Shown piece by piece: positions 14,468 through 60,733 of a DNA stretch of 64,000 bases. Made by a program: the position numbers and the translations under genes. Each line of letters starts with the position of its first letter. The stretch's first letter is position 1. The DNA is from Betaproteobacteria bacterium RIFCSPLOWO2_02_FULL_63_19 (GTDB lineage Bacteria > Pseudomonadota > Gammaproteobacteria > Burkholderiales > SG8-39). Location of the stretch: NCBI GenBank assembly GCA_001770415.1, contig MEQX01000069.1, forward strand, positions 9,185 to 73,184. Direction: 5' to 3'. The notes below the pieces were generated by a model that saw only the letters and a list, made by a program, of their open reading frames with translations, made no database searches and was not told where the DNA came from.

Positions 14468-14537
14468 CAGTCAAGCCGGCCGCCGCGCGCCGATCGCGCG
14501 ATAATGTGCGCTGGCATAAGCAGTAAAGCAAATCGTG

Positions 14538-20954: not shown

Positions 20955-22886
20955 ATGATCTATGGATATGCCGGCAAGATTGCGAAGATTGACCTTTCCA
21001 GCGGAGCCGTGATTGAAGTTCCGACGCAGGGGTATGCCGCTTCGTTCATCGGCGGCCAGGGCATGGCGTCGCGCCTTTATTGGGAGGATGTCCCGCCGGA
21101 TATTCACGCCTTCGATCCCGAAAATCGCTTAATTTTTGCGACCGGGCCCTGTGCCGGTTTTCAGGGTCTGTCCGGGGCCCGCTGGGTCGTCTGCGGCAAA
21201 TCGCCGGCGACGAGCCCCCACTATTTCACTCATTCGAATTTGGGAGGCAGCTGGGGTGTCGAGCTCAAAGCCGCCGGATTCGACGGCCTGCTCGTAAATG
21301 GGCGGGCGGAGACGCCGGTCTGCATCCTGATTGAAGACGGTGCAGTCAGGATCGAGTCTGCTTCGGGCCTGTGGGGTAAAGGTGCCGTGCAGGCGCGTCA
21401 AATTCTCAAGAGCAGGCACGGCAGTTCACACCGTGTCGTCGCGATCGGCCCTGCGGGGGAGAACATGACGGCACTGGCCACCCTTCAGGCCGATAACGAC
21501 TCCAGCGGTTCCGGGGCGCTGGGGGGCGTAATGGGCTCGAAACGGCTCAAGGCGATCATAGTCAGGGGGACCGGCCGGGTGCCAGCCGCTCGGCCCGCTC
21601 AGCTTCAGGAATTGCTGGAGCATATCGCTGCATTGAGGAAAGACTTTCCGCGCACGGACACGGGAGCCGGCCGAGGCGGCACGACAGACCACTGTGCCGG
21701 ATGCACCGATGAATGCACACGCGGCCTGTATGTGGCCGCGGACGGCAGCAAAGGCAAGTTCATGTGCCAGAGCGCTGCGTCATACAAGGAATGGGCCGAA
21801 AAATATTATGGGAAACCGACGGACGTGCCCTTTTTCGCTAACCGGCTTGCCGATGACTGCGGAATAAGTACGAAAGCCGTGGCGCCGATGGTTGCCTGGC
21901 TCGACCGGTGCTATCGAGCGGGCGTCCTGAAGGATTCGGATGTGGGTCTCCCTCTGTCCAAGATCGGGAGTTTGGAGTTTATGCAAGTCCTCTTGGAAAA
22001 TGTCGCTCATCGCCAGGGTTTCGGCGAACTCCTCTCCGAGGGAGTTCACAGGGCCGCGGCCTCGATCGGCGGTCGCGCCGAAGAACTGCTTAAGGACGCC
22101 GTCACCGGCGCCGGCGAGCAGATGAGCTACGTGCCCAAGGCCTATCTCACGACCGGCCTTCTTTACGCATTGAATCCAAGACAGCCCATTCAGCAGCTCC
22201 ACGAGGTAAGCCGTCTGGGAATGCAGTGGGTGCAATGGGCAAACGGAGTGCCGAATGCCAATCTGTCTAGCACCGCGCTGCGCGCGATCGCCGGCCGGTT
22301 CTGGGGAAGTGAAATCGCAGCAGATTTCTCCACATACGAGGGTAAAGCACTCGCGGCGAAGATGGTTCAGGACCGTCAGCTCGCGAAGGATTGTCTCATC
22401 CTTTGCGACAACGTATGGCCGCTCACCTATGTAGAACATTCGGACGATCACGTGGGCGATCCCACGCTGGAGAGCCAGGTCTTTTCCGCGATTACCGGCA
22501 GGGATATGTCCGAGGAGGGGCTCTACCGCGTGGGCGAGCGAGTCTTCAACCTGCAACGGGCGATCACGTCCCGCGAGGGGCGGCGTGGCAGGCTTGACGA
22601 TACCCTTCCGGAGTCGTGTTTCACGGTTCCGCTGGAGAACGAGCGGTTGAATCCCGGCTGCATTTTCCCGGGTAAGAATGGGGAGACGATATCCCGGAAG
22701 GGCGCATTATTCGAAAAGGACAAGTTCTTCGCGATGCGCGACGAATATTACGGGCTTCGTGGTTGGGATAGGGAAACCGGGTTGCAGACCCAAGCCGGGT
22801 TGGAAGGCCAGGGACTCAGTGATGTTGCCGTCGATCTTGCGAAGCGGGTCATGCTCGCGCGTCCGCGAGAAGCTAATGCCGAATGA
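20955..22886 (+). CDS. Aldehyde:ferredoxin oxidoreductase family (W/Mo-pterin) protein
   Basis: GYAGKI..IDLS, IGGQG, KSP, GG.WG.ELK.AGFD, IGPAGE, GVMGSKRLKAI, CxxCxxxC, EYYGLRGWD. Confidence 0.92.
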   Translation: MIYGYAGKIAKIDLSSGAVIEVPTQGYAASFIGGQGMASRLYWEDVPPDIHAFDPENRLIFATGPCAGFQGLSGARWVVCGKSPATSPHYFTHSNLGGSWGVELKAAGFDGLLVNGRAETPVCILIEDGAVRIESASGLWGKGAVQARQILKSRHGSSHRVVAIGPAGENMTALATLQADNDSSGSGALGGVMGSKRLKAIIVRGTGRVPAARPAQLQELLEHIAALRKDFPRTDTGAGRGGTTDHCAGCTDECTRGLYVAADGSKGKFMCQSAASYKEWAEKYYGKPTDVPFFANRLADDCGISTKAVAPMVAWLDRCYRAGVLKDSDVGLPLSKIGSLEFMQVLLENVAHRQGFGELLSEGVHRAAASIGGRAEELLKDAVTGAGEQMSYVPKAYLTTGLLYALNPRQPIQQLHEVSRLGMQWVQWANGVPNANLSSTALRAIAGRFWGSEIAADFSTYEGKALAAKMVQDRQLAKDCLILCDNVWPLTYVEHSDDHVGDPTLESQVFSAITGRDMSEEGLYRVGERVFNLQRAITSREGRRGRLDDTLPESCFTVPLENERLNPGCIFPGKNGETISRKGALFEKDKFFAMRDEYYGLRGWDRETGLQTQAGLEGQGLSDVAVDLAKRVMLARPREANAE

Positions 22887-44850: not shown

Positions 44851-46679
44851 ATGGCTTATGTGACTGACCTGTATTTCATCGGCGGCAGCGTAATCTATCT
44901 GGTCTGCGTGAGCCTCCTGATCGCCGCCATGCGCGGCGGCTGGTTCAATCGGCTGACCAGCGGCTATCGGTGGACGTTGATTCTGTCGATCGCGCTGATC
45001 GGCGTCGGTTCGACGCTCGTGGTCAGCGTGTGGGCTTATTCCGCCGCGAGAGATCTGCTGTATCGGGAAATCGTCACGGAACTCGACAACGTCGGCCGTG
45101 TCATCGACCAGCAAGTCGAGCGGGAGGTCGCGTTGGCGACTGCTCAGATGGTCGACCTGTCGAGGGCAGTGACCATGGCGATGGCGCGCGACACCGCAGC
45201 CCAACTCCGCGAGGACGTTGCAGCCGTTCAGGTCGTCAACCCGCGCCTGCTTCAGCTGCGGCTCGTCGACCCGCGAATGTCCGTCATTGCCGAGAGCAGT
45301 GTCACGGGTGTGCTCGATCCGATGGGCCGGCTGGCGGTCGGCACGGCACTGGATGACCGGCGATTTGTCTCCGACCCGTTCTTTCCGGAAGCCTTCAAGA
45401 AGTTCGTACTCAGAATTGACGTTCCGGTGAAATCCCGCGAAGGAACGATCATCGGCGTACTCGGTGCACGTTACGACATACAGGAGGCGCTGCAGACGCT
45501 GGCAAATACCGCGCGCTTCAATGCCAACGGCTATGCGGTGGTGGTCGATCACACGGGACGAGTCATTGCCCATCCGGATCCGAAGCGCATCAACGACGAC
45601 CTCTCCGGCTATCCCGCGGTGAAGGCCGGGCTCGAGGGCAAGAGCGGATCGCTGACGGCGCGCAACAAGGCGGGGATCTCGAGGCTGTTTTTCTATCGCC
45701 CGCTGAAGGGCCCGGCGAGCGCGGATCCGAAGCGCATGGTTCTGCTCACCGAAATCGACAGCAACGAAGTGGCGGGCCTGCTGCAAGGGCTGCAGAACCG
45801 ATTTGTGATCGCGGCGGTGGCCGTGATCGTCATCTGTTTGATATTGACCCGGCTGCTTGCCGGGGGCATCGAAACGCCCCTCCGCCAGATGATGAGTGCG
45901 GCGAAGAAGATCGAGGAGGGCGATCTCACGGTGGAGATCGAGCGCAGGGGCGTCGACGAGTTCGGGCGGCTTCTGGTGCGGTCAATTCCATGGTCCGCGG
46001 TCTGCGCGAACGGGAACCCATCAAGCAGGTCTTCGGCCAGTACGTGGCCGCCCACGTCTCGGAAAAGGTGCTGCGCGGGGAAGTCGCCCTCGAAGGCGAG
46101 GCGCGCCGGGTCACGGTGCTCTTTTCGGATATCCGCAACTTCACCTCCATGGCGGAAAAACTGTCTCCGCTCGAGGTGGTCAGGTTTCTGAACGATTACT
46201 TTTCAGAGATGGTCGATGCCGTCTTCGAAAACGAGGGGATGCTGGACAAGTTCATCGGTGACGGCCTGATGGCCATCTTCGGCGCGATCGCGGATGCGCC
46301 GGACCATGCCCACAAGGCGGTACGCACCGGCCTGCGCATGAAAGCGCTGGTGGCGAAGATCAACGGCACCCGCGACATCGGCGGCCTGCCCCCGATCGCC
46401 ATAGGCATCGGCGTGCATACCGACAACGTCATCCTGGGCAACATCGGATCGCGCAAGCGGCTGCAATATACGGCGATCGGCGACGGCGTAAATACCTGCT
46501 CGAGGATCGAGTCGCTGAACAAGGAGTTCGGAACCACGCTGCTGGTGACCGAGGCGACCTACGAACTGACCAAGGACGCATTCGAGTTCGGCCCCGCGCA
46601 GAAAGCCACGATCCGCGGCAAGAGCGAACCGGTCATGTGCTACGAGGTGTTGAGCGAGCGGGCCTCCGCCGTCGGATAG
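44851..46679 (+). CDS. Class III adenylate cyclase with dCache and HAMP domains; 1-nt frameshift near 45972
   Basis: ORFs 44851-46191 and 45990-46679 join if one T is added (CTT[T]CT). Catalytic motifs VLFSDIRNFT, DKFIGDG and YTAIGDGVN..SR are intact. Confidence 0.88.
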
Positions 46680-46985: not shown

Positions 46986-49900
46986 CTATTTGACGGTGTA
47001 GATCAGGTTATACCTGCCATTAATCAGCATTTCATTCCACGGCACGGTGACGCCAGAATCGACCGTGCCGAGGCCGTAGCCTGCATACACCTGCGCGCCG
47101 ATGAGCGTGCTTAGATTCAGCTCACCTGCGATGTCGATGGTAATTGTCCCTAGAGTGACGGGTGAGGCGAAATAAGCGGGGTTCTGCGGATCATACGGCA
47201 CCCAGGTCCCGCCGGAGTTCTTGAGGTAAACGGCGTTCCCGTACTGCGCCGGAAGCACGACCGCAACGTATATCGTCCCCACTTTACTTTGATCATTTCC
47301 CGAGGCAACGATCGTTCCGACAACGGTCTTGGAAGTGATGTCGCCTGTCGCCGTACCCGACGCGCTGGCGTTTGTGTTGGCAGTCGCGGTGACGGTGCAG
47401 TTCTGGCTGATCGCGCCGGTGGTGAATGTCTTGCCGTCGGCGCCGAGCGTGCCGGAACAGCCGCTCACGCTGTTCACGACGTAGCCGCTCGCGGGAGTGA
47501 CGGTGAAGCTGGTTGTTCCGCCTGAGGCGACCGTCACCGGGCTGGTCTTGTCATAGGTAACGCGGTCGCCGCCGAGCGTGACCTCGTAGCCGCGCGGGGC
47601 CGAACATTGCGCACTGGCGCCGAGCGCACTCTGGCAACTCCAGGTGTACTTGTCGGTGGCGCTGGTGACTTGCGACGGCGTTGCACCGTCCGCGCAAAGT
47701 TGGCCCTCTGGTGTGCCGAAGAATTGCACCTCGGAGAGCCCCGCCCAGGTAGCGGAACCATAGGTTGAGAGCACTTTGAACGTGATAAACCGTCCCTTTC
47801 CGCTGACCGAATAGGCTTTGCCTAGGCCGTCGCTTTCTTCTGCGAACGTAGTTTTCACCGTGCTCGAAACGGTGGAGCCGTCATCGCCCAAGAACAAAAC
47901 ATCCACGTCTTTTATGCCGCGTGTTGTATACAAGGTCTGGCCGTCAAACTCAAAGTAATTCCATACATGAATGGAAGTCACGTTATGAACGCTGCCGAGG
48001 TCGAAGGTGATTGTGAGCGACCCGGCCCCAGTCGTAAAGCTGCCTAACCACATATGGCTAGCAATCTTGTCATGTGTTGATCCTGTTAATCCAATTCCTC
48101 CGATGGCCGCATTCGCGGGTCGCGACGAAAGCTCATGATTCGCACTGGCTTTGACCACTGAAATCATTCCCGATGTGTTGTTGTTGCCTTCCGGGGCGCT
48201 CAGTAGCGGCTCGCTGCCGCTCGCCGGTCCGCACAAGGACGCAGCGTCGCCTCCGACGGTGTGCACCAGTTTAAAGGTGCCGTTCTTCAGCATGTCGTTC
48301 CATGGGGCGACAGCGCTGGTATCCGGCGCACCAATGCCGTAGCCGAGATAAATCTGCGTACCCGCCAGAGCGCTCAAGTTGAGGCCGGTTACGACATCGA
48401 CGCTGTGCTGTCCCAGAGTGACGGCACCGGCGTAAAACGCTGGATTCGCCGCGTCGAATTTCACCCAGCCACCGCTCGCGTTCTTGAGGTAGACGCGATC
48501 GGGCGTGTCCAACGGCGAATCGGCTGCGAACCCCGAGGGCAGGACCGCGGCGACATAGATGGTTCCTGTCTTGCCTTGATCGCTCCCCGAGGCGGTGATT
48601 TCTGCCGTTATGGTCCGGGAGGTGATCTCTCCAGTTGCTGTCGCTTTGAAGCCTGCGGGACGGATGATGGCAGACGCGGTGACGGTGCAGTTCTGGCTGA
48701 TCGCGCCGGTGGTGAAGGTCTTGCCGTCGGCGCCGAGCGTGCCGGAACAGCCGCTCACGCTGTTGACGACGTAGCCGCTCGCGGGAGTGACGGTGAAACT
48801 GGTTCCATCTGAGGTGACCGTCACCGGGCTGGTCTTGTCAAAGGTCACATTTGCGCCGGCGAGCGTGACGGAATAGCCGCGTTTGGCGGAACAAACCGCT
48901 GTGGTGCCGCCGTTTGAACCTTGGCAACTCCAGTTGTACTGGCTTGTAGTGTCCGTGACCTGCGTGGGGTTGCCGCTCGCGCAGAGGTTGTCTGCCGGCG
49001 CGCTCGTCCACAGCGGTGGGTTATCCGGGTTGCTACCGTGATATCTGTCCGCCGAGCCGCAGGCGCCGTAGACGGGGACGGCTGCGACATTCGTGTTTAC
49101 CCCAATGCAGGACACGTCCGACTTGTTATTGGACGCATCCTCCGCCATCAGGCAGACGGTATACACGGGATTCGAAAACGTGCTCGCCGACAGTCCAGCG
49201 ATGGAGAAATTCGTCGGGGTATTGGCGGTCATCGTCCCGCTGCCCGAGGACAGTCCATCCTGGCCAAGTTTGACTTGATCCGCGGATACGCTTGATTGCG
49301 GTAAGGGATACGGAGCGACAAACACGATCCAGTATCCCGTTGCGTTCTCATTACTGGTGCTTGTCAGCATGGTGCTTGTCAGCGTGGTGCCGGTGCTGGT
49401 CGTGGCCGATACGTCAGTACCGCTCAGCGAGGGCGCTGTCGTGTCTGGGGCGGCAGTCGTGGTGAACGCAACGCAGCTCACGCTCGACTGGTTCGTGGAT
49501 CCATCCTCTGCCATCAGGCAGACGGTGTAGCCGGTACTCGCCGACAGTCCAGTGATCGAAAAATTCTTGGGCGTGCTGGCGGTCATCGCGCCGCTGCCCG
49601 AGGTTACGCCGGCGCTCCCGGTGCTGTTCTGCCCCGCTTTGACCTGCGCCTTCGATGGCGCCGTGGCGCCGGTACCCGACAACACGACCCAGTAGCCCGT
49701 TGCGTTCTCATCGCTGGTGCTTGTCAGCGTGGTGCCGCTGCTGCTCGTTGCCGACACGCCGGTGCCGCTCAGCGTGGGCGCGGTGGTGTCTGCGGCGGCG
49801 GTCGTGGTGACATCGACGCAACTGACGCTTGAGAGGTTCGGGATCCCGTCCTCGGCCATGATGCACAGCGTGTAGCCGGTGCTCGCAGAGAGCCCCGTGA

Positions 49901-50719
49901 TCGAAATATCGGTCGGAACAGCGGGGATCATCGGCGCGTTGCCGGAGGCTAGCGCTGCCCCACCGATGCTGTCGAGACCCGCCTTGACCTGCGCGGCGCT
50001 TGGCGCTGTCGCGCCGGTTCCCGCCAGCTCGACCCAGTAGGCGACAGCCAGCTGGTCGCTGGTGCTCGAGAGCGTCGTGCCGCTGCTGGTCGTCCCCGAA
50101 ACCCCGGTGCTGCTCAGTACCGGCGCGTAGGGGTCGGAAAACACCAGGTTGTCGATGACGATGTCGGACCACGCCCCGCCGCCTTGCTTGGTTACCGTAA
50201 ATCCCGTGACCCCGGTCCAAGGGGTTCCGCCGGTGAAGCTGACGCTCGTGCCGCCAGTTGTCGCGGTGGCATCGACGGTGCTACCGCTTCCGCCGATCTG
50301 GGTGAACGTGAACGTATCGCACGTGGTCCGGCACCCCAATACCAGCGATTGCAGATCGATCTTGGTATCGAACGCGAAGGTAAGCGTTGGGGGGAAGGAT
50401 TGATGAAATCGGTGAGATCGTTGGCCAGATTATTGGTGCCGTTCATCCCCCAGTCGCTTACCAGCAGATTGGCGCCGGTGTCGAGGGTAGCGCCCAATGT
50501 GACACCGAAGGCGGTATCGTTGACTTCGGCCGATCCGCCGCCGATCGCCGATTCGAAGGTGAACGTCGGTGAGACGACGGCCCGGGCGAGCGGAGCCGCG
50601 CCGAGCAGGGAAAGAACCAGAACCGCGAAAAGAAAACGCGCCCGATGAACCAGAAACGCGCGGATTACCGACGAAAATTGCCCGCTGCAACGATGCATCA
50701 AACGCACGCCGTTCGACAT
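46986..50719 (-). CDS. Large repetitive surface protein / adhesin; frameshift at the C6 tract (50389-50394)
   Basis: AGGAG RBS and signal peptide; 3 FN3-like repeats, 2 Cys-containing modules each followed by a beta repeat, a discoidin-like domain and a duplicated C-terminal domain. The two ORFs join if C6 becomes C7. Confidence 0.85.
47385..48797. repeat. Near-identical intragenic repeat (47385-47507 and 48675-48797)
   Basis: About 123 nt at offset 1290 with about 2 mismatches, encoding FTVTPASGYVVNSVSGCSGTLGADGKTFTTGAISQNCTVTA. Confidence 0.9.
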
Positions 50720-51223
50720 TTCACTCTCCTGGTGAATATTCTAATAATTCGCGCGTCGGAACTTTGCTCCTCCAGGCGCGATGTCCTTCCTGCAACCGCA
50801 TTGCACAGCCGGCCGACCGCTTCGCAAACAACGGCCGAGCCTACTCACAAAGTGGGGTAGTACGGGACTATCTTGTTGCTGCGAACGCCTTATATCAGAA
50901 ACGGCCGGCAGCGTCACTTGCCGCGTGTCGAAAATGACGTTGTCATGCAATGGGTTGTGCCCGGTTGACGGGCGACGTGCCGTTCCGATTTCGCCGAGCG
51001 CTGGCCAGACCGGAGCGTGGCCGACGGCGCGCGTACGGAGTCCTCGATCCGATTGCGCACGTGATGTAAATCACACCGCGTCACCGCGGGTGGTCCATGA
51101 TTGCATCTTCCCGCCGGAGGAGGACTGCACGCGGCACCGATCGATCGCCGCCACCAGCGTCGAGGTTGCACGGGTCCGGCGATGCGAATACGTTTCCGTT
51201 CACCAATCAGGAGAATGCATACC

Positions 51224-52240
51224 ATGGCAACGCACATTGTGAAAATCGGGGCCGTGCTGCGGACCTTGGCCGTGACGACTCTGCTTGCGGCCGCCGCCGT
51301 CGGCACGGCTGCGCAGGCGCAGACCGCAGGCGGCCCGCCGAAAGACCGGATCTTCCTCACGATCAACAGCGGTCCGCAGGGCTCGGGCTGGTACGTGGTC
51401 TCGGGGCTGATCGCCGAGCAGATCGAGAAGACGTTCCCGAACGCACGCGTGACCAACACGCCGGGTCAGCCGGTCGCCAATACCCGCGCCGTCGACGCGA
51501 AGCGGGCGGACATGGGCACCGAATTCGGCTGGCTGGCGCTCACCGCGATGGAGGGAACGAAGCCTTACAAGAAGCCGGTACACAACGTTGCGGCGATCTC
51601 CGGCCTGTACCCGACGCACTTTCAACTGTTCGCGCGCGCCGATTCGGGCATCAAGTCCTACGCCGATCTCGCCAACAAACGCATCGCCGTGGGCACCGCT
51701 GGAACCTCCGGGGACCGGATGACGCAGCGGATCCTCGCGTTCTACGGACTCAATTACGACAAGATCCGTCAGAACGGCGGCAGCGTCTCGTTCAGCGCGT
51801 ACAACGACGCCAAGCAGTTGATGAGCGACGGCCACCTCGACGCGTTCACGATCTCCTCGACCAAGCCGAACACCCAGGCCGTGGAACTGCAGCTCACGCA
51901 GGACATCCGGCTCATCCCGCTGGAGGAGAAGATCGTCGACCAGTACGTCAAGAAATTCCGCGGTTTCGGCAAGAGCCAGATCGCCGCAGGAACCTACAAG
52001 AACCAGCCGCAGGCCGTCTGGGCGATCAGCGTCCCAGCACTCATCACCGTGCGCAAGGACCTGCCCGAAAACGTGGTCTATTGGATCACCAAGGCGTGGT
52101 GGGACCACGCGAGTCAGATCGGCAAGGCCTACAGCATGGTCAAGGACGATATGGTCGCGAACGTCGCGCTCAAGGATCTCGTGGTGCCGCTGCATCCGGG
52201 CTCCGCGCGGTACTTCAAGGAGATCGGTGTCCTGAAGTAG
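51224..52240 (+). CDS. TAXI family TRAP transporter solute-binding protein
   Basis: Signal peptide; SGPQGSGWY, LYP...Q, IKS.ADL..KRIAVG..G, I.AGTY, VPLHPG..RYFKE. Confidence 0.92.
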   Translation: MATHIVKIGAVLRTLAVTTLLAAAAVGTAAQAQTAGGPPKDRIFLTINSGPQGSGWYVVSGLIAEQIEKTFPNARVTNTPGQPVANTRAVDAKRADMGTEFGWLALTAMEGTKPYKKPVHNVAAISGLYPTHFQLFARADSGIKSYADLANKRIAVGTAGTSGDRMTQRILAFYGLNYDKIRQNGGSVSFSAYNDAKQLMSDGHLDAFTISSTKPNTQAVELQLTQDIRLIPLEEKIVDQYVKKFRGFGKSQIAAGTYKNQPQAVWAISVPALITVRKDLPENVVYWITKAWWDHASQIGKAYSMVKDDMVANVALKDLVVPLHPGSARYFKEIGVLK

Positions 52241-52329
52241 GCTAGACTCGCCCTTCGTGACGACGATGTTTCCTGCGCTCTGGGCGGGCGCCGCCCGGAG
52301 CGCGAGCCGTTGAAGGACGTGGATAGTTC

Positions 52330-54231
52330 GTGCCGGAGCTGACCCAGGAAGCGAAGAAGGGCGCTGAGGAATCCGCGCTCAGCCGCGGATTCACCGCGGT
52401 GTTCCGCACCCTGCTGATCGCCACCTCGCTGTTCCATCTGTGGACCGGCGTCATGGGGCCGTTGGAGAGCTGGCTGCACCGCTCGCTGGCGCTGTCGATC
52501 TATCTTTCGCTGCTGTTCCTGCTGCCGTTCTACAAGAAGCCGGTCACCTGGCTGGCGCTCGTGCGAGTGGCGCCGCTGGTGCTCGCCAGCATCGCCATCG
52601 GCGCCTACATCTGGGTGATCTACGACGATCTTCCCGACAAGCTAGGCAACCTGAACAACTTCGACATGGCGTTCGGCGGCCTGCTGATCGTCGTCGTGCT
52701 GATCGCCGTCAAGCGCGCGATGGGATGGTCGCTGGTCATTCTGGCCCTGGCCTTCCTGATCTACACCCGATACGGCCCCTATTTCCCCGGCATTTTCGGC
52801 CACCGCGGCCTGCCGCTCGCCGCCATCGTCGAGATCATCTTTTTCAACATGGACGGCATCTACGGATTCCCGATCGGAATCATGTCCACGTTCGTATTTC
52901 TGTTCATCCTGTTCGGCGCGTTCTTCGAGAGCATCGGCCTCACCGATCTGCTCGCAAGCCTTGCGCGGTACGTGGCGCAGAGGGTGACCGGCGGGGCGGC
53001 GGTGGCCGCCGTGTTGGCCAGCGCGATCGTCGGCAGCGTTTCGGGCAGCGCGATCTCCAATGTGATGGTCACCGGCGCGTTCACGATTCCGATGATGCGG
53101 CGGGCCGGCTACAGGCCGGAAATGGCGGCGGCGATCGAAGCATCGGCCTCCACGGGCGGGCAGATCATGCCGCCGGTCATGGGCATCGCCGCCTTCGTCA
53201 TGGCCGAGGTCATCGGCATTCCCTACGTCCAGGTCGTGGTCCTGGCCCTGGTGCCGGCGCTGCTGTACTTCCTGGGGGTCGGCTGGAGCGTCTATTTCGC
53301 GGCCAAGCGCGCAGGCATAGGCATCGACCGCGAAAGCGCGCCCGAATCGCTGGGGCGGATCATGCGCTCCAAGGGATTTCTGATCCTGCCGTTGATCGCG
53401 GTCGTGTTGGCGCTGATGACGGGAGCCAGCCTGATGCGCGTCGCGATGGTGGGCATCGTCGCGTCCGTACTCGTCGGGCTGGTCAATCCGCACAAACGCT
53501 TTCGCCTGCGGGAGTTCCTGGACTCGCTCGAGAAGGGGGCCGAGGTCGCCGTTTCGATGGGCGCGGTGCTGGCATGGGTCGGTTTGACGGTGGGGCTGAT
53601 CGCCGCCAGCGGTTTCGGTTCACTGGTGGCAGGGACGCTCGTGCGGTCGGTCGGAGAAAACCTGATTGCAATTCTGCTGATCACCATGCTGATCAGTCTG
53701 GTGCTCGGCATGGGGATGACCACGGTCGCGGTATACGTGACCCTCGCGATCACGGTAGTTCCCGGCCTGGTCGAACTCGGCGTCAACCCCTACGTCGCCC
53801 ACTTTTTCGCGTTCTATTTCGGCGTACTGTCGTTCGTGACCCCGCCGGTCTGCATCGCCACCTACGCGGCGGCCGGCCTTGTCGGTGCCAACCCGACCAA
53901 GGCCGGGTGGGAAGGACTCGCGCTGACCGCGTCGGGGTTTCTGGTACCGTTTGCAGCCGTCTATCAGCCCGCGCTGATGCTGCAGGGAAGCGCGGTGGAA
54001 GCCGTCTCCGCGATCGGCACCGCATTCTTCGGCGTCGTCGCGCTCAGTGCCGGGCTGCAGGGGTATTTCTTCAGCAGAGCAGGAAAGTGGGAACGCGTGG
54101 CGCTGGCCGTGGCGGGCATTCTATTGATCGTTCCGAACCTGGCCGTTTCGGCGGTGGGCGCGTGCCTGTTCGCCGGCATCGGCTGGCTGCAGTACCGCTC
54201 GTTGCGCCGCCGCGCGGTGCCGACGAATTGA
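52330..54231 (+). CDS. TRAP transporter 4TM/12TM fused permease
   Basis: GIYG.P, FILFGAF, SGSAISNV..TG.FTIPMM, EASASTGGQIMPPVMG, LGMG, TPPV. Confidence 0.94.
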   Translation: MPELTQEAKKGAEESALSRGFTAVFRTLLIATSLFHLWTGVMGPLESWLHRSLALSIYLSLLFLLPFYKKPVTWLALVRVAPLVLASIAIGAYIWVIYDDLPDKLGNLNNFDMAFGGLLIVVVLIAVKRAMGWSLVILALAFLIYTRYGPYFPGIFGHRGLPLAAIVEIIFFNMDGIYGFPIGIMSTFVFLFILFGAFFESIGLTDLLASLARYVAQRVTGGAAVAAVLASAIVGSVSGSAISNVMVTGAFTIPMMRRAGYRPEMAAAIEASASTGGQIMPPVMGIAAFVMAEVIGIPYVQVVVLALVPALLYFLGVGWSVYFAAKRAGIGIDRESAPESLGRIMRSKGFLILPLIAVVLALMTGASLMRVAMVGIVASVLVGLVNPHKRFRLREFLDSLEKGAEVAVSMGAVLAWVGLTVGLIAASGFGSLVAGTLVRSVGENLIAILLITMLISLVLGMGMTTVAVYVTLAITVVPGLVELGVNPYVAHFFAFYFGVLSFVTPPVCIATYAAAGLVGANPTKAGWEGLALTASGFLVPFAAVYQPALMLQGSAVEAVSAIGTAFFGVVALSAGLQGYFFSRAGKWERVALAVAGILLIVPNLAVSAVGACLFAGIGWLQYRSLRRRAVPTN

Positions 54232-54248
54232 ACCGGAAAGGAGCGCCG

Positions 54249-54779
54249 ATGTCCGCGCCCGACGACGAGATCGCCTATCACCTGAGCTTCCGCGATGTCA
54301 TCCGCGTGCTGCAACTGGTCGACGCGAGCCCGTTCCTCGACCTGAAGCTGGAGATCGGGGCGCTGAAAGTGCATGTGACGCGCGAGCGGGGCGGGGAGGC
54401 GCCTGCGCCGTCCGCCGCAGCCGACACCGCGCAGTCGAAGGGCGCGCGTGGCGAGTTCGCCGAATCGCCGGCGGAACCGCTCGCCCCGGAGCGTCGCGAG
54501 GTGCCGGAGGGCACCCCTGTCGTCGCGCCGCTCGCCGGCACGTTCTACCGCGCGCCGTATCCGGGCCAGCCTCCGTTCGTGGAAGTCGGATCGGCCGTCG
54601 AAAAAGGTGCCGTGGTGGGCATACTCGAAATCATGAAGCTGATGAATAACGTGCTCGCGCCGTGCGCCGGGGTGATCGCGGCGATCTGCGCCGAGAACGA
54701 GGCGTTCGTCGAAGTCAATCAGGTACTGGCGATCGTCGCGCCGCGCGACCAAGCACGTGGGTCGGAGGGGGCGCGTTGA
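54249..54779 (+). CDS. Biotin carboxyl carrier protein (AccB-like)
   Basis: APLAGTFYRAP.PG.PPFVEVG; EIMKLMN biotinylation site. Confidence 0.93.
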   Translation: MSAPDDEIAYHLSFRDVIRVLQLVDASPFLDLKLEIGALKVHVTRERGGEAPAPSAAADTAQSKGARGEFAESPAEPLAPERREVPEGTPVVAPLAGTFYRAPYPGQPPFVEVGSAVEKGAVVGILEIMKLMNNVLAPCAGVIAAICAENEAFVEVNQVLAIVAPRDQARGSEGAR

Positions 54780-56257
54780 AGCCGCTGCGCGTTCTCGACG
54801 AGAGCCTGCGCATGGGCCAGCAGGCGCTTTGGGCCACGCGCATGAAGACGAAATGGATGCTGCCGATCGCGCCGGTCATGGACCGCGCGGGTTTTTACCA
54901 GGTGGCGGCCATGGCGCCGGTGTCGTTCGAGACCGCGGCGATGTATCTGTACGAGAATCCCTGGGAGCGGCTTCGGCTGCTGCGCCGGCACATGCCGCAT
55001 ACCAGTTTCGACTTCCTGGTGCGCTCGAGAAACGTGGTCGGGTGGGATCTGAAATCCAACGACGTGGTGGAACTTTTTCTGCAGACGCTCTACGCGACCG
55101 GCATTCACGGCATCAAGGTGTTCGATGGCCTGAACGACTACCGGAACGTCGCTTTTCACCTGCAGAAAGGCAAGGAACTCGGCTTTCACGTCAAAGGGCT
55201 GCTGACATTTACCGTAAGCCCGGTGCACACGGACGAGTATTTCGTGGGCAAGGCCCGCGAGCTGGAAGCGCTGGGCGTGGACGCCGTCATCATCGCAGAT
55301 CCCTGCGGCGCCATGCTGCCGGATCGGGCCCGCACGCTGATCGGCCGCGTGCGTGCCGAATTGCCGGCGATGGAACTGCACTTCTCAACGCACCCCAACA
55401 GCGGCGTTTCCACGCCCTGCTATCGGGAGGCCATCCGGCAGGGCATCGACGTGCTGTGGGGAGCATGTACGCCTTTGGCGAACGGACACTCGTTTCCGCC
55501 GCACGCGACGATCGTGCAACTGGCCGCGGAAGAAGGCCGTGCGATCGAACTCGACGAACGCTGCCTGCGGGAAATGGATGACTGGTTCTACTGGGCTGCC
55601 TATCAGGAGCATCGACCGATCGGCAAACCGGCGGAGTTCGATCCCGTCGCCTACGAGCGAACCATCGCCCATCAGATCCCCGGCGGCATGATGTCCAACC
55701 TGGAGAGCCAGTTGGCCGGGCTCGGCATGGCGCACCGGATGCCCGAAGTGCTCGAAGAGGCGGCGCGCGTCAGGGAGGAACTCGGCTACCCGGTCATGGT
55801 CACGCCGTTTTCGCAGTTTGTCGGCGTTCAGGCGACACTGAACGTCGTGACCGGGGACCGGTATTCGTCGGTGCCGCGCGAAATGGTGCTGTATTGCCGG
55901 GGGCACTACGGCCAGTCGCCGGGGCCGATCGATCCGAATGTGCTGGACCGGGTCGTGGGTGATCTGCCGCCGATCGACCCGACCGCGCATTATCACGACA
56001 ACACGATCGAGAAAGCTCGCGCCGCGAGGGGCGATCTGACCGACGAAGAGCTGCTGACGACCTTGTTTCTGAGCCCTGCCGCGCTGGAGACATTCACCAA
56101 GAACAGAAAGCCCATCGAGTGGGACGCGGGCGCCCGCGCGCCTCTGCTGGCCCTGATCGAACAGTTGTGCAGACGACCGAAGCTGCGCGGGGTCGAGGTC
56201 CGCTACGCGGACGTCAGCCTGACGCTGTCCACCGAATCCGGCGGTCCGGCGAGCTGA
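54776..56257 (+). CDS. Pyruvate carboxylase B / oxaloacetate decarboxylase alpha-like carboxyltransferase with a non-canonical active site
   Basis: ATRM, E.PWERLR, FDGLND, SPVHT, HQIPGGMMSNL, VREELGYPVMVTPFSQFVG. The TTG start overlaps the carrier gene stop (TTGA). Confidence 0.9.
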   Translation: MKPLRVLDESLRMGQQALWATRMKTKWMLPIAPVMDRAGFYQVAAMAPVSFETAAMYLYENPWERLRLLRRHMPHTSFDFLVRSRNVVGWDLKSNDVVELFLQTLYATGIHGIKVFDGLNDYRNVAFHLQKGKELGFHVKGLLTFTVSPVHTDEYFVGKARELEALGVDAVIIADPCGAMLPDRARTLIGRVRAELPAMELHFSTHPNSGVSTPCYREAIRQGIDVLWGACTPLANGHSFPPHATIVQLAAEEGRAIELDERCLREMDDWFYWAAYQEHRPIGKPAEFDPVAYERTIAHQIPGGMMSNLESQLAGLGMAHRMPEVLEEAARVREELGYPVMVTPFSQFVGVQATLNVVTGDRYSSVPREMVLYCRGHYGQSPGPIDPNVLDRVVGDLPPIDPTAHYHDNTIEKARAARGDLTDEELLTTLFLSPAALETFTKNRKPIEWDAGARAPLLALIEQLCRRPKLRGVEVRYADVSLTLSTESGGPAS

Positions 56258-56319
56258 TCCCGGTCGACGAGCCGGCCGGATAATAATCTGCACTGATACC
56301 CGAAAAAAGGATACCGACC

Positions 56320-57348
56320 ATGCTGGAACAGTACGTGTCACCCGCAAACAAGATCGTCGATCTGGTTGCGTCGCTGCAGTTTCCGTTCGCCAACGTGAGA
56401 CCAGGCGAAAACGTCATGATCGTGACCGATACCAACATGGACCCTTTGATCTGGCAAGCGATGATGGCCGTGATCCGCTCCAGGGGCGCCGACCCGACGC
56501 TGATGATGTATACGCCGCGCGCGCATCACACGGCCGAACCGACGGCGCCGGTGGCGCACGCGTTGAAGGGATGCGACATCTGCGTTTTCCTGACGACGAC
56601 CGCACTGGCGCACTCGGATTTCTCCGAGAATCGCGGCAACGTCGGCGTGCTGCTTATGGAGGAGGCGAACGTCGAGATACTCACCTCTCCCGGATGTCAG
56701 TTGAACGACGAGGACATGCAGCGGATCCTCGCGAGCGAGCGCTGGGTGCGCGAGTTCTGGATGGAAGGCGGCGATGTCCACGTCGTCACACCGGCCGGCA
56801 CGGATCTGCGGGCCGCGCTGGTGCCCGGCACGAAGCGCAGCGCCTACATCCGCAGGGGCATCCTGGTCCCGGAGGCGGAGAAACGCGGCGTCGGAACCTG
56901 GCCGTTCGGCGAATGCCGGGTCACTCCGCTCGAGGGCAGCGGCGAAGGCCGCGTCGTCTGGGACATCTGCGGCCACGCGCCGCCGGGACGCTATCGCAAA
57001 CCCGTGTCCCTGACCGTGAAGGCCGGGCGCGTGGTCAAGATCGAGGGCGATGGCGAGGCCGACGAGGTCAGGCGGTATCTGGAAACGCACGGCGACGAAA
57101 ACTCCTACGCCGCGCCGGCGGAAATCTCGGTGGGCCTCAATCACAAGGCCACGATCCTGGGCACGGTGCGCAACGACAAGAAGGCCCTGGGCACGGCGCA
57201 CATCGCCATCGGCCGCAGCGACATCGGCGGCAGCATCGTCAGCGCCACGCATTTCGACGGACTGATGGCGCGGCCGACGATCACCGTCAACGGCAAGGCG
57301 CTGATCAGGGAGGGCGTGCTGCAGTTCCCGCCGGGATGGACGCCGTGA
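56320..57348 (+). CDS. M29 aminopeptidase / NicX-like metalloprotein
   Basis: V.PGENVMIVTD, TPAGTDL, WP.GE, AEISVGLN, GTAHIAIG, HFDG...PTITVNG. Confidence 0.85.
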   Translation: MLEQYVSPANKIVDLVASLQFPFANVRPGENVMIVTDTNMDPLIWQAMMAVIRSRGADPTLMMYTPRAHHTAEPTAPVAHALKGCDICVFLTTTALAHSDFSENRGNVGVLLMEEANVEILTSPGCQLNDEDMQRILASERWVREFWMEGGDVHVVTPAGTDLRAALVPGTKRSAYIRRGILVPEAEKRGVGTWPFGECRVTPLEGSGEGRVVWDICGHAPPGRYRKPVSLTVKAGRVVKIEGDGEADEVRRYLETHGDENSYAAPAEISVGLNHKATILGTVRNDKKALGTAHIAIGRSDIGGSIVSATHFDGLMARPTITVNGKALIREGVLQFPPGWTP

Positions 57349-57390
57349 CCAACACGTCCGTGCGCCGCTCGTCCGCGCGTGTCGCGGGCT

Positions 57391-59049
57391 CTAGCCCGCT
57401 CCGGGAATGACCGGGACCAGCAGATGCGAGTCATACCGCCCGCCGCCGCGCACGATATGCCGGCCGGTGTTGCGCAACGGACCGTGCGCGATCATCGGGC
57501 CCTTAGGGGTCAGCTTGTAGAAATCCCGTCCCTGGATCACTGCGCGCAGGCTCTCGCCCTTGTGGAACAGCGTGCTCGAGACCAGGATCTCGATGTCGAT
57601 CGGTACGAACTCGCCGGGGTTCAGGCGCAGCTCGCGCTGGTGCAGCAGCCACGGCTGGTAGTCGGTGGAGCGCACCGGATCGAGCTCGCGGTGAGACACG
57701 CGCAGCCAGCCCAGCGCGACGGGACCGTCGTCGTAGACGGCAAAGAACGCGAACGGCACCTGCTCGCCGGCGGCATCCAGCTTGTGGATCGCGACGAAAA
57801 GGTCCATGTCGTCCCCCTCGCTGGTGGCCACCCACAGCCGCAGTTTCATGTGGCCGGTCAGCTCGGTTTCCTCGGCGAAACGGTGGTCGAACATCGCCCG
57901 GCCTTCGCGCGGGTCGTATTCCACGTCCGCTGGAGAGCTCGTCGCCGACGCGACGAGGGTGCATTCGGCGCAGTCGAGAAACAGCTTCGTATAGCGCGTG
58001 CGCGCAAGCGGAAACTCGTCTTCTGCGCGCATCGTGCCGACATAATGGCGTTCGCGCACCTCGATGTTGACCGTTGGCCAGTCGAGCACTTCGTTCCGCG
58101 TTTCCTTGAGGAAGTGGTCGAAGAACGCCCGTTGTTTTTCGACCATGTCCGGCCGAAGAAAGTACTCCCACTTGTTGCGGCCGTGCACTTCGAGCCACTT
58201 CTGTTTCGAAGACATCTGCTTGAAGCCCTCGACGGTACCTCGCGTGTGCAGGCCCTGGTCTCCCCAGCTGGCGACGACGTAGGCGGGCACCTCGATCAAC
58301 GGGAGATCGGGCGCCTTGCTCTTCCAGTAGGCGTCGAAGAACGGATGCAGGTCTATCATGGCCATCACGTCCTCGACTTCGGTGCTGGAGTAGAGGGAAC
58401 GCTCCAGCCAGGTCGGCATGAACAGATTTTCCGGAATGCCGCCGTGCTTGGCGCGCTCCCGGTAGGAATCGCTGTATCCCTCCCACGGATTGATCGCAGC
58501 AAGATGGGGCGGACGCAATGCTGCGACCTGCCACTGCATGATGGCGAGGTACGAGACCCCCGAGCATCCGACTTTGCCGTTGCTCCACGGCTGCACGGCG
58601 ACCCACTCGATCAGGTCGTAGTAGTCCTTCGCTTCGTCGGCCGACCAGAACGTCGCCTTGCCTTCGGAATACCATGTACCCCGCGGATCGACGTTGATGA
58701 TCGCATAGCCGTGCCGCGTCCAGTACAGCGGATCAGGGGCTTCGAAGGCCGCATGGCGCGACACCCACTCGGGCCTGACGCCGCCGTTGTCGTGGAAACG
58801 CGCATAGGTGCCACGCGGGGAATGTTTTCCATAGGGGCCCCACGCGATCAAAGTGGGCAATCCCCCAGTCTTGTCGTCGGGCCGGAAGATATCCACGAAG
58901 ATGCGGACGCCGTCGCGCATCGGCACGGCCACGTCGCGCTCGATGCTCATCCCGTCTTCGCGGCTGACGCGGTATCCGCGCTCGGCATTCGCCAGCTTCC
59001 CCGGCGGCTTGCCGGGGCGGAAAATGTACTCGAAGGTCTCCTTCGACAT
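57391..59049 (-). CDS. CocE/NonD family hydrolase (peptidase S15)
   Basis: VPMRDGVRI..DIFRP, PYGK, VDPRG...SEG, QPWSNGKVG..GVSY, GWLRVSHR. Confidence 0.93.
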   Translation of the reverse strand: MSKETFEYIFRPGKPPGKLANAERGYRVSREDGMSIERDVAVPMRDGVRIFVDIFRPDDKTGGLPTLIAWGPYGKHSPRGTYARFHDNGGVRPEWVSRHAAFEAPDPLYWTRHGYAIINVDPRGTWYSEGKATFWSADEAKDYYDLIEWVAVQPWSNGKVGCSGVSYLAIMQWQVAALRPPHLAAINPWEGYSDSYRERAKHGGIPENLFMPTWLERSLYSSTEVEDVMAMIDLHPFFDAYWKSKAPDLPLIEVPAYVVASWGDQGLHTRGTVEGFKQMSSKQKWLEVHGRNKWEYFLRPDMVEKQRAFFDHFLKETRNEVLDWPTVNIEVRERHYVGTMRAEDEFPLARTRYTKLFLDCAECTLVASATSSPADVEYDPREGRAMFDHRFAEETELTGHMKLRLWVATSEGDDMDLFVAIHKLDAAGEQVPFAFFAVYDDGPVALGWLRVSHRELDPVRSTDYQPWLLHQRELRLNPGEFVPIDIEILVSSTLFHKGESLRAVIQGRDFYKLTPKGPMIAHGPLRNTGRHIVRGGGRYDSHLLVPVIPGAG

Positions 59050-59233
59050 GCTTTTCCTCCCCACCGTGCTGCGGCTCGCGAACTGAACCGGCCACCGCGA
59101 GCGCGCTCATGTTTTCCGGCACATCCGGTGCCGGGTGCACTGCATCTTATGCTATTTTCGAATGCCAATGCACCCGCTCGAAGGAGGCAGCGAAGCGGGT
59201 GATGGGCAGGCATCGGAGTCGAGGGATAGGGAC

Positions 59234-60100
59234 ATGCTCGTCGATATCGTGAGCGTGCAGACGCGGGACGGGATCACGCTGCACGGCAGTCACCGGGGCG
59301 CGCGCACCGGCGTGGTGTCGGCGCTGCCGATCGACGTGCTGGTGATGCACCACGGAGTCGCCGGCAACTTCTATGGCAGCGACCTGTTCGACGACCTGAG
59401 CGATCTGGTCGTGGCTGACGGCTGCGCGGTGATCCGGGCGAACAATCGTGGGCACGATCTGGCAAGCTGGGCCGTCGATGCCGTCGGGCGTACGCGCAGC
59501 GGTGCCGCATACGAGATCATGGCCGATTCGCTTCACGATTGGGATGCGTGGATCGGGTTTGCGGCAGATCTGGGGTACGAGCGCATCGGCGTGCTCGGCC
59601 ACAGCCTGGGCGCGACAAAGACGATCTGTTATTTCGGCAACCGCGGTGACGAGAGGGTGCGGCTGGCGGTCGCGCTTTCGCCGCCCCGGCTGTCGTACAG
59701 CGCGTTCCTGCGTTCTCCTGATGGAGCCGAATTCAGCAGGTACGTGGAGACGGCGCGCAAGCGGATCGAAACCGGAGATCGCAACGCGCTGATCGACGCG
59801 GCGCTGCCGATGCCGTTCCTGGGGTCCGCGGCGACGTATTACGATAAGTACGGACCCGAGGAGCGCGTCAACATGCTGAAGCACCTGCCCAACGTGAAGC
59901 TGCCGTTGCTTGCGATGCATGGAACGACGGAGGCCGCCACGGAACTGGCGATGCGCGGCGTGCCGGAGGAACTGATGCGGCTGGCCGACGAGATTCCCAA
60001 CTTCCACTACGCGGTCGTGCCCGAAGCCGATCACTTCTATACCGGGCTGCGTCCGAAGGCGTGGAGCATCGTCCGCGACTGGCTGATGAGCCAGTCGTAG
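59234..60100 (+). CDS. Alpha/beta hydrolase
   Basis: TRDGITLHG, HG..GNFY, NNRGHD, GHSLG nucleophile elbow, ADHFY. Confidence 0.88.
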   Translation: MLVDIVSVQTRDGITLHGSHRGARTGVVSALPIDVLVMHHGVAGNFYGSDLFDDLSDLVVADGCAVIRANNRGHDLASWAVDAVGRTRSGAAYEIMADSLHDWDAWIGFAADLGYERIGVLGHSLGATKTICYFGNRGDERVRLAVALSPPRLSYSAFLRSPDGAEFSRYVETARKRIETGDRNALIDAALPMPFLGSAATYYDKYGPEERVNMLKHLPNVKLPLLAMHGTTEAATELAMRGVPEELMRLADEIPNFHYAVVPEADHFYTGLRPKAWSIVRDWLMSQS

Positions 60101-60117
60101 GCGACCGCACTTGGACG

Positions 60118-60733
60118 GTACCTCAACCCGCGCCTGCTTTAGCTGCGACTCGTGGACCCGCACCTGTCCGTTCTCGCCGAGCGCAGCGTCACCGGTGTGC
60201 TCGATCCGATGAGCCGGCTCGCGGTCGGGACGGCTCTGGACGCCCGACAGTTCGTCTCCGATCCGTTCTTTCCTGACGCCTTCAAGAAGTACGTACTCAG
60301 AATCGACGTTCCGGTGAAATCCCGCCAGGAAAGCGTCATTGGCGTGCTCGGAGGACGTTACGACATACAGGAGGCGCTGCAATCGCTGGCAAATACCGCT
60401 CGCTTCAACGCCAGCGGCTACGCCGTGGTGGTCTCGCACACCGGCCGGGCGGTCGCACATCCCGACCCCAAGCGCGTCAACGACGACCTCTCCGGTGCGG
60501 TCAATGCCATGGTCCGCGGTCTGCGAGAAAGAGATACCATCAAGCAGGTGTTCGGCCAGTACGTCGCCGGCCACTACAAGCGGCCGGACCTGTTCAAGCT
60601 CATACTCGATATTCGCCAGCAAGCGCAATTCCGGCCCGCGGAGGATTCACTGAACGAGATTGCGAACGCAGGTCCCCTCGAGTTGCAGCCACCGGCGCCG
60701 GTGGCGAAGCGCATGAACTCCGCGTCCGAATAA
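60118..60733 (+). pseudogene. Chimeric remnant: deleted copy of the dCache cyclase fused to a nitrilase-like C-terminus
   Basis: Matches 45231-45608 then 45970-46054; CAG to TAG stop near 60140; ends GHYKRPDLFKL. Confidence 0.8.

Follow-up and report, generated by a model that had tools for sequence, protein, structure and literature searches.

In the 64,000-nucleotide (nt) stretch analysed here, which is called the window and belongs to contig MEQX01000069.1 (C69) of Betaproteobacteria bacterium RIFCSPLOWO2_02_FULL_63_19, an operon of five plus-strand genes at 51224-57348 encodes a TAXI-type importer, a biotin carboxyl carrier protein (BCCP), a carboxyltransferase (CT) with a non-canonical active site and a NicX/M29-fold protein, referred to below as the M29-like protein. 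Homologous loci indicate that this arrangement, in which no biotin carboxylase (BC) gene is found, is a recurrent and derived state of a conserved four-part module, the common core of which is BC-BCCP-CT-M29-like. With modest confidence, we consider it probable that the module serves as an ATP- and biotin-dependent carboxylase for an imported acid, with its BC supplied in trans.

The first-pass annotation of this DNA, made from the sequence alone, had described five co-oriented and closely packed genes, a TTGA overlap between carrier and transferase, an importer linked to the enzyme genes and a rewired CT, and each of these descriptions agrees with our results. The intergenic gaps are 89, 17, -4 and 62 nt. 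In the gene calls the -4 nt gap corresponds to the TTGA overlap, where the TGA stop of the carrier gene is overlapped by the TTG start of the CT gene, and the start residue at this TTG is also the start residue in the homologues.

The proteins encoded by the operon

The CT gene (54776..56257, plus strand) encodes a PycB/OadA-like protein of 493 amino acids (aa) that matches PYC_OADA (PF02436, E=1e-35), while its score for PF00682 (22.9 bits) is below the cut-off of 29. The protein aligned over its full length to 5ks8 and 2nx9, with the architecture of an HMGL-like TIM barrel plus a PYC_OADA domain, and the matches to 5ks8_C (E=3e-82) and 2nx9 (E=6e-72) covered about 400 residues; 1rqb matched at E=9e-62. 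It stayed under the curated NCBIfam cut-offs of NF006761 (395.8 against 402), TIGR01108 (oadA, 353.8 against 756.5) and NF008984 (5S, 250.9 against 827).

In pyruvate carboxylase-type CTs, which are biotin-dependent, activity is generally believed to rely on a metal centre with a carbamylated Lys and on a Thr that shuttles protons. We take the metal ligands of 2nx9 to be Asp17, carbamylated Lys178, His207 and His209. When the CT was aligned with 2nx9, 5ks8 and eight paralogues from the same genome, these Asp/Lys/His/His positions read M13, A174, S204 and H206, that is, three of the four canonical ligands are missing and only one His is kept. The position of the catalytic Thr is taken by F345, with VTPFSQ in the CT in place of VTPTSQ in 5ks8 and 2nx9. 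According to PMC5895798, Thr882 of Rhizobium etli pyruvate carboxylase, the equivalent of the Thr in VTPTSQ, is catalytically essential. The altered pattern was common to all 19 closest database proteins covering these positions, and 50%-identical relatives from many phyla were also without the Lys. Because both the metal site and the Thr are lost, the substrate or the chemistry would be unlike pyruvate enolate chemistry, and the substrate is probably neither pyruvate nor oxaloacetate. Newly conserved residues were found in the CT family as well; E9 is near-invariant and D175 and H206 are invariant, and these three might form a replacement site.

A profile-based survey of CTs covered 80 genome loci, among which the Lys was missing in 47 and kept in 33; the Thr was kept in none of the 47 Lys-less loci. 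A BC gene lay inside the fetched flank at 30 of these 47 loci (within 3 kb at 27) and a separate carrier was present at 35, and for this reason Lys-less CTs are as a rule partners of a BC. Since most members of this widespread set, which has neither the metal-centre Lys nor the Thr, still travel with BC and carrier, they are likely to be functional enzymes that differ in mechanism or in the class of substrate used. Three of the Lys-less loci of other subtypes (L027-L033, L042, L048 and others) were annotated. These three, L028 (Bacillus), L042 (Caenimonas) and L048 (a delta proteobacterium), were found with genes for thiolase and family III CoA-transferase, and a short-chain dehydrogenase/reductase gene was also present at L042 and L048. 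Such a context would suit the formation or removal of a beta-keto acid.

The carrier gene (54249..54779, plus strand) encodes an AccB-type BCCP of 176 aa with a biotinyl domain (Biotin_lipoyl, PF00364, E=3e-14). The predicted biotinyl-lysine is K130 in the motif EIMKLMN, with its codon at 54636-54638. The score against the AccB equivalog TIGR00531 was 94.3 bits, below the cut-off of 115.2. Residues 10-163 nevertheless aligned with residues 19-175 of full-length E. coli AccB (4hr7_B, an entry of the BC-BCCP complex), and the AccB-type N-terminal domain is kept at BC-containing and BC-less loci alike. The idea that the C-terminus of the CT mimics the N-terminal motif of AccB was dropped, as BLASTP gave no alignment.

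The fifth gene (56320..57348, plus strand) encodes a protein of 342 aa that had no match in the copy of Pfam-A searched, PF02073 (M29) included. A relationship with NicX was detected by sequence (7cn3, E=1e-6 for the single sequence and 5e-12 for a profile) and by Foldseek on the predicted fold (mean predicted local distance difference test score 74), where the TM values were 0.73 for NicX, 0.57-0.63 for PepS, AmpS and AmpT, and 0.48 for CgnE. CgnE is described as a crocagin peptide-binding protein of the same fold. Atlas neighbours of the fifth protein carry PF26233 NicX, and its homologue at locus L036 gave a weak PF02073 match (E=6e-5) below the cut-off. E198, E268 and H294 are invariant in all 13 aligned sequences, and H310 and D312 are present in the window's subtype and replaced by Arg and Glu in the other subtype. 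The set E198/E268/H294/H310/D312 looks closer to the E/E/H/H/D dinuclear metal site of M29 aminopeptidases, of whose ligands the five residues would be putative equivalents.

PMC7910607 gives His265, Ser302, His318 and Asp320 as the Fe(II) ligands of NicX and His105, Glu177 and His189 as its substrate residues. The equivalents of His318 and Asp320 are kept in the fifth protein (H310 and D312), whereas His265 is replaced by Glu, Ser302 by Ala, Glu177 by Arg and His189 by Thr. With these four equivalents replaced, assignment as a 2,5-dihydroxypyridine dioxygenase was rejected; the protein is more likely, judging from its residues, a metallohydrolase-like enzyme.

The M29-like gene was found in seven of the nine surveyed loci where the ligand Asp is replaced (it is missing in L035, which has short flanks, and in L043) and in none of the 70 loci that keep the Asp, the Asp position being unread in L102. 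Its confinement to Asp-less CT subtypes hints at a functional coupling with the CT. In the close subtype defined below, the gene lies 28-161 nt from the CT gene. No CT-M29 fusion was seen among the best 150 of 3739 relatives, the longest of which has 426 aa. When the CT and the M29-like protein were modelled as a complex, the score was 0.10, with the mark at 0.32, which weighs neither for nor against contact.

The importer is composed of a TAXI-family TRAP solute-binding protein (51224..52240, plus strand, 338 aa) with a signal-peptide-like stretch at its N-terminus and a fused TRAP permease of the DctQM type (52330..54231, plus strand, 633 aa). Both parts of a TAXI-TRAP transporter scored above the curated NCBIfam cut-offs, the binding protein with 207.2 bits against 84.35 (TIGR02122) and the permease with 565.5 bits against 320.65 (TIGR02123), and they matched PF16868 (E=1e-59) and PF06808 (E=3e-75), respectively. 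The closest solved relatives of the binding protein are the TAXI proteins 1us4 and 8u79 (E ~2e-32). Homologous module loci also adjoin acid importers, namely TctC (TTT), DctPQM or TAXI (TRAP), and MFS, and these importer types point to carboxylates as the cargo. No TAXI orthologue was found in 25 related genomes (closest match 34% identical) and no M29-like orthologue in 40 (closest match 31% identical); the genomes searched include three of the same genus, 80-97% complete. Since neither gene has an orthologue in these relatives, the operon is classed as accessory and as probably acquired.

Biotin carboxylase at homologous loci and selection on the trio

Besides the window, the close subtype comprises 18 loci, with CTs 73-87% identical and the signature M-A-S-H-F at the four ligand positions and the Thr position. 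Six of these loci were uninformative, as their contigs begin inside or at the carrier or CT gene (L025, L104, L107, L109, L113 and L117), which left 13 informative loci with the window counted. Seven of the 13 have BC sequence as the immediate upstream neighbour of the carrier gene. It is full-length at L024, L105 and L114, cut by the contig end with more than 300 aa visible at L106 and L112, and visible only as a C-terminus at the contig end at L118 and L119. At L116, a BC remnant (L116:3009-3443) that consists of the C-terminal domain alone (PF02785, E=3e-33) stands between the MFS and carrier genes and looks like BC decay in progress; L115, a near relative of L116 (synonymous divergence, dS, 0.17), has no trace of BC. 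The remaining BC-less loci are L108, L110, L111 and the window, giving five of 13 together with L115. The upstream neighbour in these loci is a metallophosphoesterase gene (L108 and L110, near-identical), a TPR-GT41 gene on the other strand (L115) or a TRAP permease gene (L111 and the window).

The first-pass annotation had proposed a search of homologous loci for accC, reasoning that its constant presence would make the window a truncated copy. The gene is indeed mostly there, in seven close loci and as one remnant, but not always, as five loci are without it. The related view that absence of BC defines the system was not sustained, since sister loci commonly carry BC upstream of the carrier gene.

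A second subtype, 50% identical in its CT and with the signature NSHHF, gave a similar picture. The order M29-like-BCCP'-BC-BCCP-CT was found in four of the five loci with full flanks, and at L036 the BC alone is missing and the two carrier genes are adjacent. A single BC was found in 2.3 Mb of the L036 genome. Given that BC is present in four of five loci of so distant a subtype, the four-part module is old and includes BC. Judged by the upstream neighbours, loss of BC took place in no fewer than three distinct settings within the close subtype, and a further loss is seen in the distant one (L036). The backbone of the CT tree has six of 12 inner forks open, so losses are given as distinct upstream contexts and not as events. 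The BCCP' gene of the NSHHF subtype is an additional biotinyl-domain gene of reduced length, placed between the genes for the M29-like protein and BC (L026:7464-7910, L034:7785-8140), and such a gene is also seen at L036:9196-9564.

The trio of carrier, CT and M29-like protein is under purifying selection, which was not relaxed after BC loss. The ratio of nonsynonymous to synonymous substitution rates (dN/dS) of the CT ranged from 0.07 to 0.14, with 0.074 for the window against L111, 0.10 for L108 against L115 and 0.118 for the BC-containing pair L105/L106. The values were 0.11-0.22 for the M29-like protein and 0.30-0.38 for the carrier, the latter in BC-containing and BC-less pairs alike. None of the BC-less loci examined has a disrupted reading frame for any of the three proteins. 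The active-site replacements are common to the whole subtype; because they also occur in BC-containing loci, they predate the loss of BC.

Biotin enzymes elsewhere in the genome and possible mechanisms

The first-pass annotation had noted that BC, OadB and OadG are absent from the window, and searches with PF02785, OAD_beta and OAD_gamma gave the same result. No BC was found on C69, and the genome's PF02785 matches are on C10, C58 and C63 only. OAD_beta (C14 and C7 only), OAD_gamma (C14 only) and 12S-type Carboxyl_trans (C22, C14, C3 and C64 only) are likewise without a match on C69. The window locus thus does not encode the ATP-dependent BC+BCCP+CT holoenzyme, and the OadB and OadG subunits of a Na+-translocating oxaloacetate decarboxylase are not encoded with the CT. 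The BC on C10 is beside accB, that on C58 is between two CT paralogues and a carrier gene, and that on C63 is part of a full pyruvate carboxylase. The C14 OAD_beta gene has OAD_gamma, a small biotin protein and a Carboxyl_trans gene as neighbours. The one on C7 (C7:31786-32904; L120:5709-6914) has a 66-aa open reading frame (ORF) upstream, no alpha subunit or carrier nearby, and is set between a flavoprotein gene and genes for a molybdopterin oxidoreductase and UbiD. Eight CT paralogues of about 490 aa, 32-36% identical, were found on C10, C26 (two), C41, C58 (two), C89 and C105 (L122-L127); all eight keep the Asp/Lys/His/His set but are without the catalytic Thr. In total the genome holds nine PycB-like CTs against three BCs and, besides the pyruvate carboxylase, five small biotin carriers. 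Neither BC nor carrier is near six of the nine CTs, and several adjoin TRAP importers, UbiD decarboxylases or CoA-transferases. The step from absence in the window to a BC-free mechanism, taken in the first-pass annotation, is therefore not forced, as three BCs and two OadB-type genes exist elsewhere in the genome.

We moderately favour an ATP- and biotin-dependent carboxylase with BC in trans because the ancestral operon has BC, the carrier is of the AccB type and most Lys-less loci carry BC. Under this reading, the TAXI binding protein and the fused permease would import an organic acid. The dedicated BC gene has been lost in the window's lineage, where the importer genes now abut the carrier gene. 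A BC from elsewhere, either the C58 BC or the housekeeping AccC, would carboxylate the biotin on K130 of the carrier with ATP and bicarbonate, the CT would pass the carboxyl group from biotin to the imported substrate or back, and the M29-like metalloprotein would act on the same substrate or on the product. Gene content, the changed residues, conservation of the trio, repeated BC loss and purifying selection are observations; that BC acts in trans, which way the reaction runs and what the M29-like protein does are what we infer here. At 54-60% identity, compared with 46-51% for AccC, the C58 BC is the closer of the two to the BCs that accompany the CT family, and is hence a candidate for the BC in trans.

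Several points weigh against the trans-acting carboxylase. Repeated and easy loss of BC would be equally consistent with a module able to do without one, and a CT deprived of its metal site might be incapable of any carboxyl transfer. Furthermore, no cognate BC was found in the genome, where the best match to the BC of the L024/L105 type is 54-55% identical, although the assembly is 92% complete and a cognate BC could be unassembled. The trio might instead be a self-sufficient biotin enzyme that works without BC as a decarboxylase or carboxyl shuttle, with its chemistry at the M29-like metal centre or at the E9/D175/H206 site. We regard this as rather improbable; if true, it would explain the repeated shedding of BC.

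A BC-independent decarboxylase, in which the CT moves CO2 from the imported acid to biotin and one of the two OadB-type subunits of the genome possibly discharges it with Na+ pumping, is unlikely but is the main rival. It accords with the repeated loss of BC from a trio that stays intact and constrained, with the C7 OAD_beta gene that has neither alpha subunit nor carrier beside it, and with the six genome CTs lacking a nearby BC or carrier, which make sharing of partners in trans look common. However, the ancestral and commoner form has BC in its operon, and the carrier is AccB-type and not fused to the CT as in OadA. No OadB was found near any homologous locus examined with Pfam, the C14 OAD_beta belongs to another enzyme, and nothing links the orphan on C7 to the module. 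A composite enzyme, in which the CT would be a biotin-docking scaffold and the M29-like metal centre would perform the CT's former chemistry in one active unit, appears still less probable. The restriction of the M29-like gene to Asp-less subtypes, its short distance from the CT gene and the three invariant residues E198, E268 and H294 speak for such a unit, but no fusion was seen among the 150 best relatives mentioned above, and the metal site is not uniform, H310/D312 being Arg/Glu in the other subtype.

Two further explanations are very improbable. In a transcarboxylase, the carrier would shuttle CO2 between the CT and another carboxyltransferase whose gene is elsewhere; no BC would be needed, and the genome offers four Carboxyl_trans matches and eight other PycB-like CTs, yet neither the window nor any of the close homologous loci contains a second CT, and sister loci carry BC instead. 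The trio could also be a decaying remnant, non-functional after BC loss. The missing BC, the operon erosion visible in the L116 remnant and the replaced catalytic residues of the CT would fit decay, whereas the intact frames in every BC-less locus examined, a dN/dS as low as in BC-containing pairs and residue replacements that are subtype-wide and older than the BC loss do not.

Operon setting and comparison with known systems

The candidate transcription unit is the five genes, with the neighbouring hydrolases outside it: of the two genes that follow, the one for a CocE/NonD hydrolase runs towards the operon, and the one for an alpha/beta hydrolase opens a plus-strand unit of its own. The first-pass annotation had supposed that these hydrolases share the substrate of the operon. 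We do not count them as components, given their opposite orientation or their place in another unit and given that homologous loci do not retain them; L116 alone has a CocE/NonD gene in the vicinity, with 34% identity. A minus-strand ORF at 59147-60628 was rejected as a gene, since the plus-strand ORFs there, for the alpha/beta hydrolase (59135-60100) and a Cache fragment (60152-60733), have a coding-type GC content at third codon positions (GC3) and Pfam matches. The Cache fragment is a truncated copy, and its translation from the opposite strand shares 62% identity over 133 aa with the region near 45211-45609. This region falls within 44851-46679, where Cache-HAMP domains and an adenylate/guanylate cyclase domain are split over two overlapping ORFs, which may represent a frameshift or a split gene.

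On the upstream side, an 884-nt gap separates the operon from a divergently oriented gene (46986-50339, minus strand) for a Thr/Ser/Gly-rich protein of 1117 aa with long internal repeats and no Pfam match above the cut-off, which is probably secreted or at the surface. Promoter-like hexamer pairs (50713..50748, plus strand) lie in this gap 5' of the binding-protein gene and match the consensus weakly; the scan of 50300-59300 gave three sites against 1.4 +/- 1.2 in shuffled sequences, which is not evidence of function.

The junction between permease and carrier genes is not an assembly artefact or chimera, because it is bridged in contigs from other runs and also seen in L111. The stretch 53542-54820 from permease through carrier to CT was bridged by contigs from a run of a different study, with 14 differing letters, and 53800-54344 by contigs of another run; L111, an independent metagenome contig, has the same junction with an upstream permease C-terminus that is 75% identical. 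The summed contig depth rises about 30-fold at 52989-53209 in all four runs mapped, where a conserved TRAP permease segment is probably common to many organisms in the samples.

The same window encodes a molybdenum hydroxylase large subunit and an aldehyde:ferredoxin oxidoreductase at 14535-16910 and 20955-22886, and glutaconyl-CoA decarboxylase-like parts and a selenocysteine synthase are encoded elsewhere in the genome. The decarboxylase-like parts and the selenocysteine synthase suggest that the organism, as an anaerobe or facultatively so, degrades aromatic or heterocyclic acids.

No description of a cluster of BC, BCCP, PycB-like CT and M29 or NicX was found in the literature searched, most subscription journals being outside its coverage, so that this is no proof of absence; the biotin passages in PMC2996986 concern an ordinary transcarboxylase. 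Among known systems, PycB (5ks8) and OadA (2nx9) have the same TIM-barrel and PYC_OADA architecture, with the CT paired with a biotin carrier, as well as with a BC in the sister loci of the window. The window's CT differs from them in its Met/Ala/Ser/His ligand set, in Phe for Thr and in missing all equivalog cut-offs, and its carrier is a separate AccB-type protein rather than a fused domain, with a NicX/M29-fold partner present. Transcarboxylase (5S, 1rqb, with the 1.3S carrier) likewise combines a BC-free PycB-like CT with a small carrier. However, no 12S-type CT occurs in the window or in homologous loci, sister loci carry BC, and the active-site residues are replaced. NicX (7cn3) comes closest to the fifth protein in both structure and sequence and shares the equivalents of His318 and Asp320, but differs in two Fe ligands and two substrate residues. 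Urea amidolyase offers a possible analogy, in that it likewise joins biotin-dependent carboxylation and a hydrolase-like partner in one module, although its CT has a different fold and no relation in sequence to allophanate hydrolase exists.

Compared with these systems, each part of the module comes from a known superfamily, and the logic of BC, BCCP and CT is classical. What is seemingly undescribed in the literature searched is the radiation of PycB-like CTs without Lys and Thr, the constant association of two subtypes within it with a NicX/M29-fold protein, and the repeated loss of BC genes. The window's subtype is the furthest altered, with one of four ligands kept, an ever-present NicX/M29-fold partner and a link to acid importers. 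The recurrent loss of BC, in a genome with nine CTs and three BCs, raises the question of how freely BCs are shared among the carriers of one cell.

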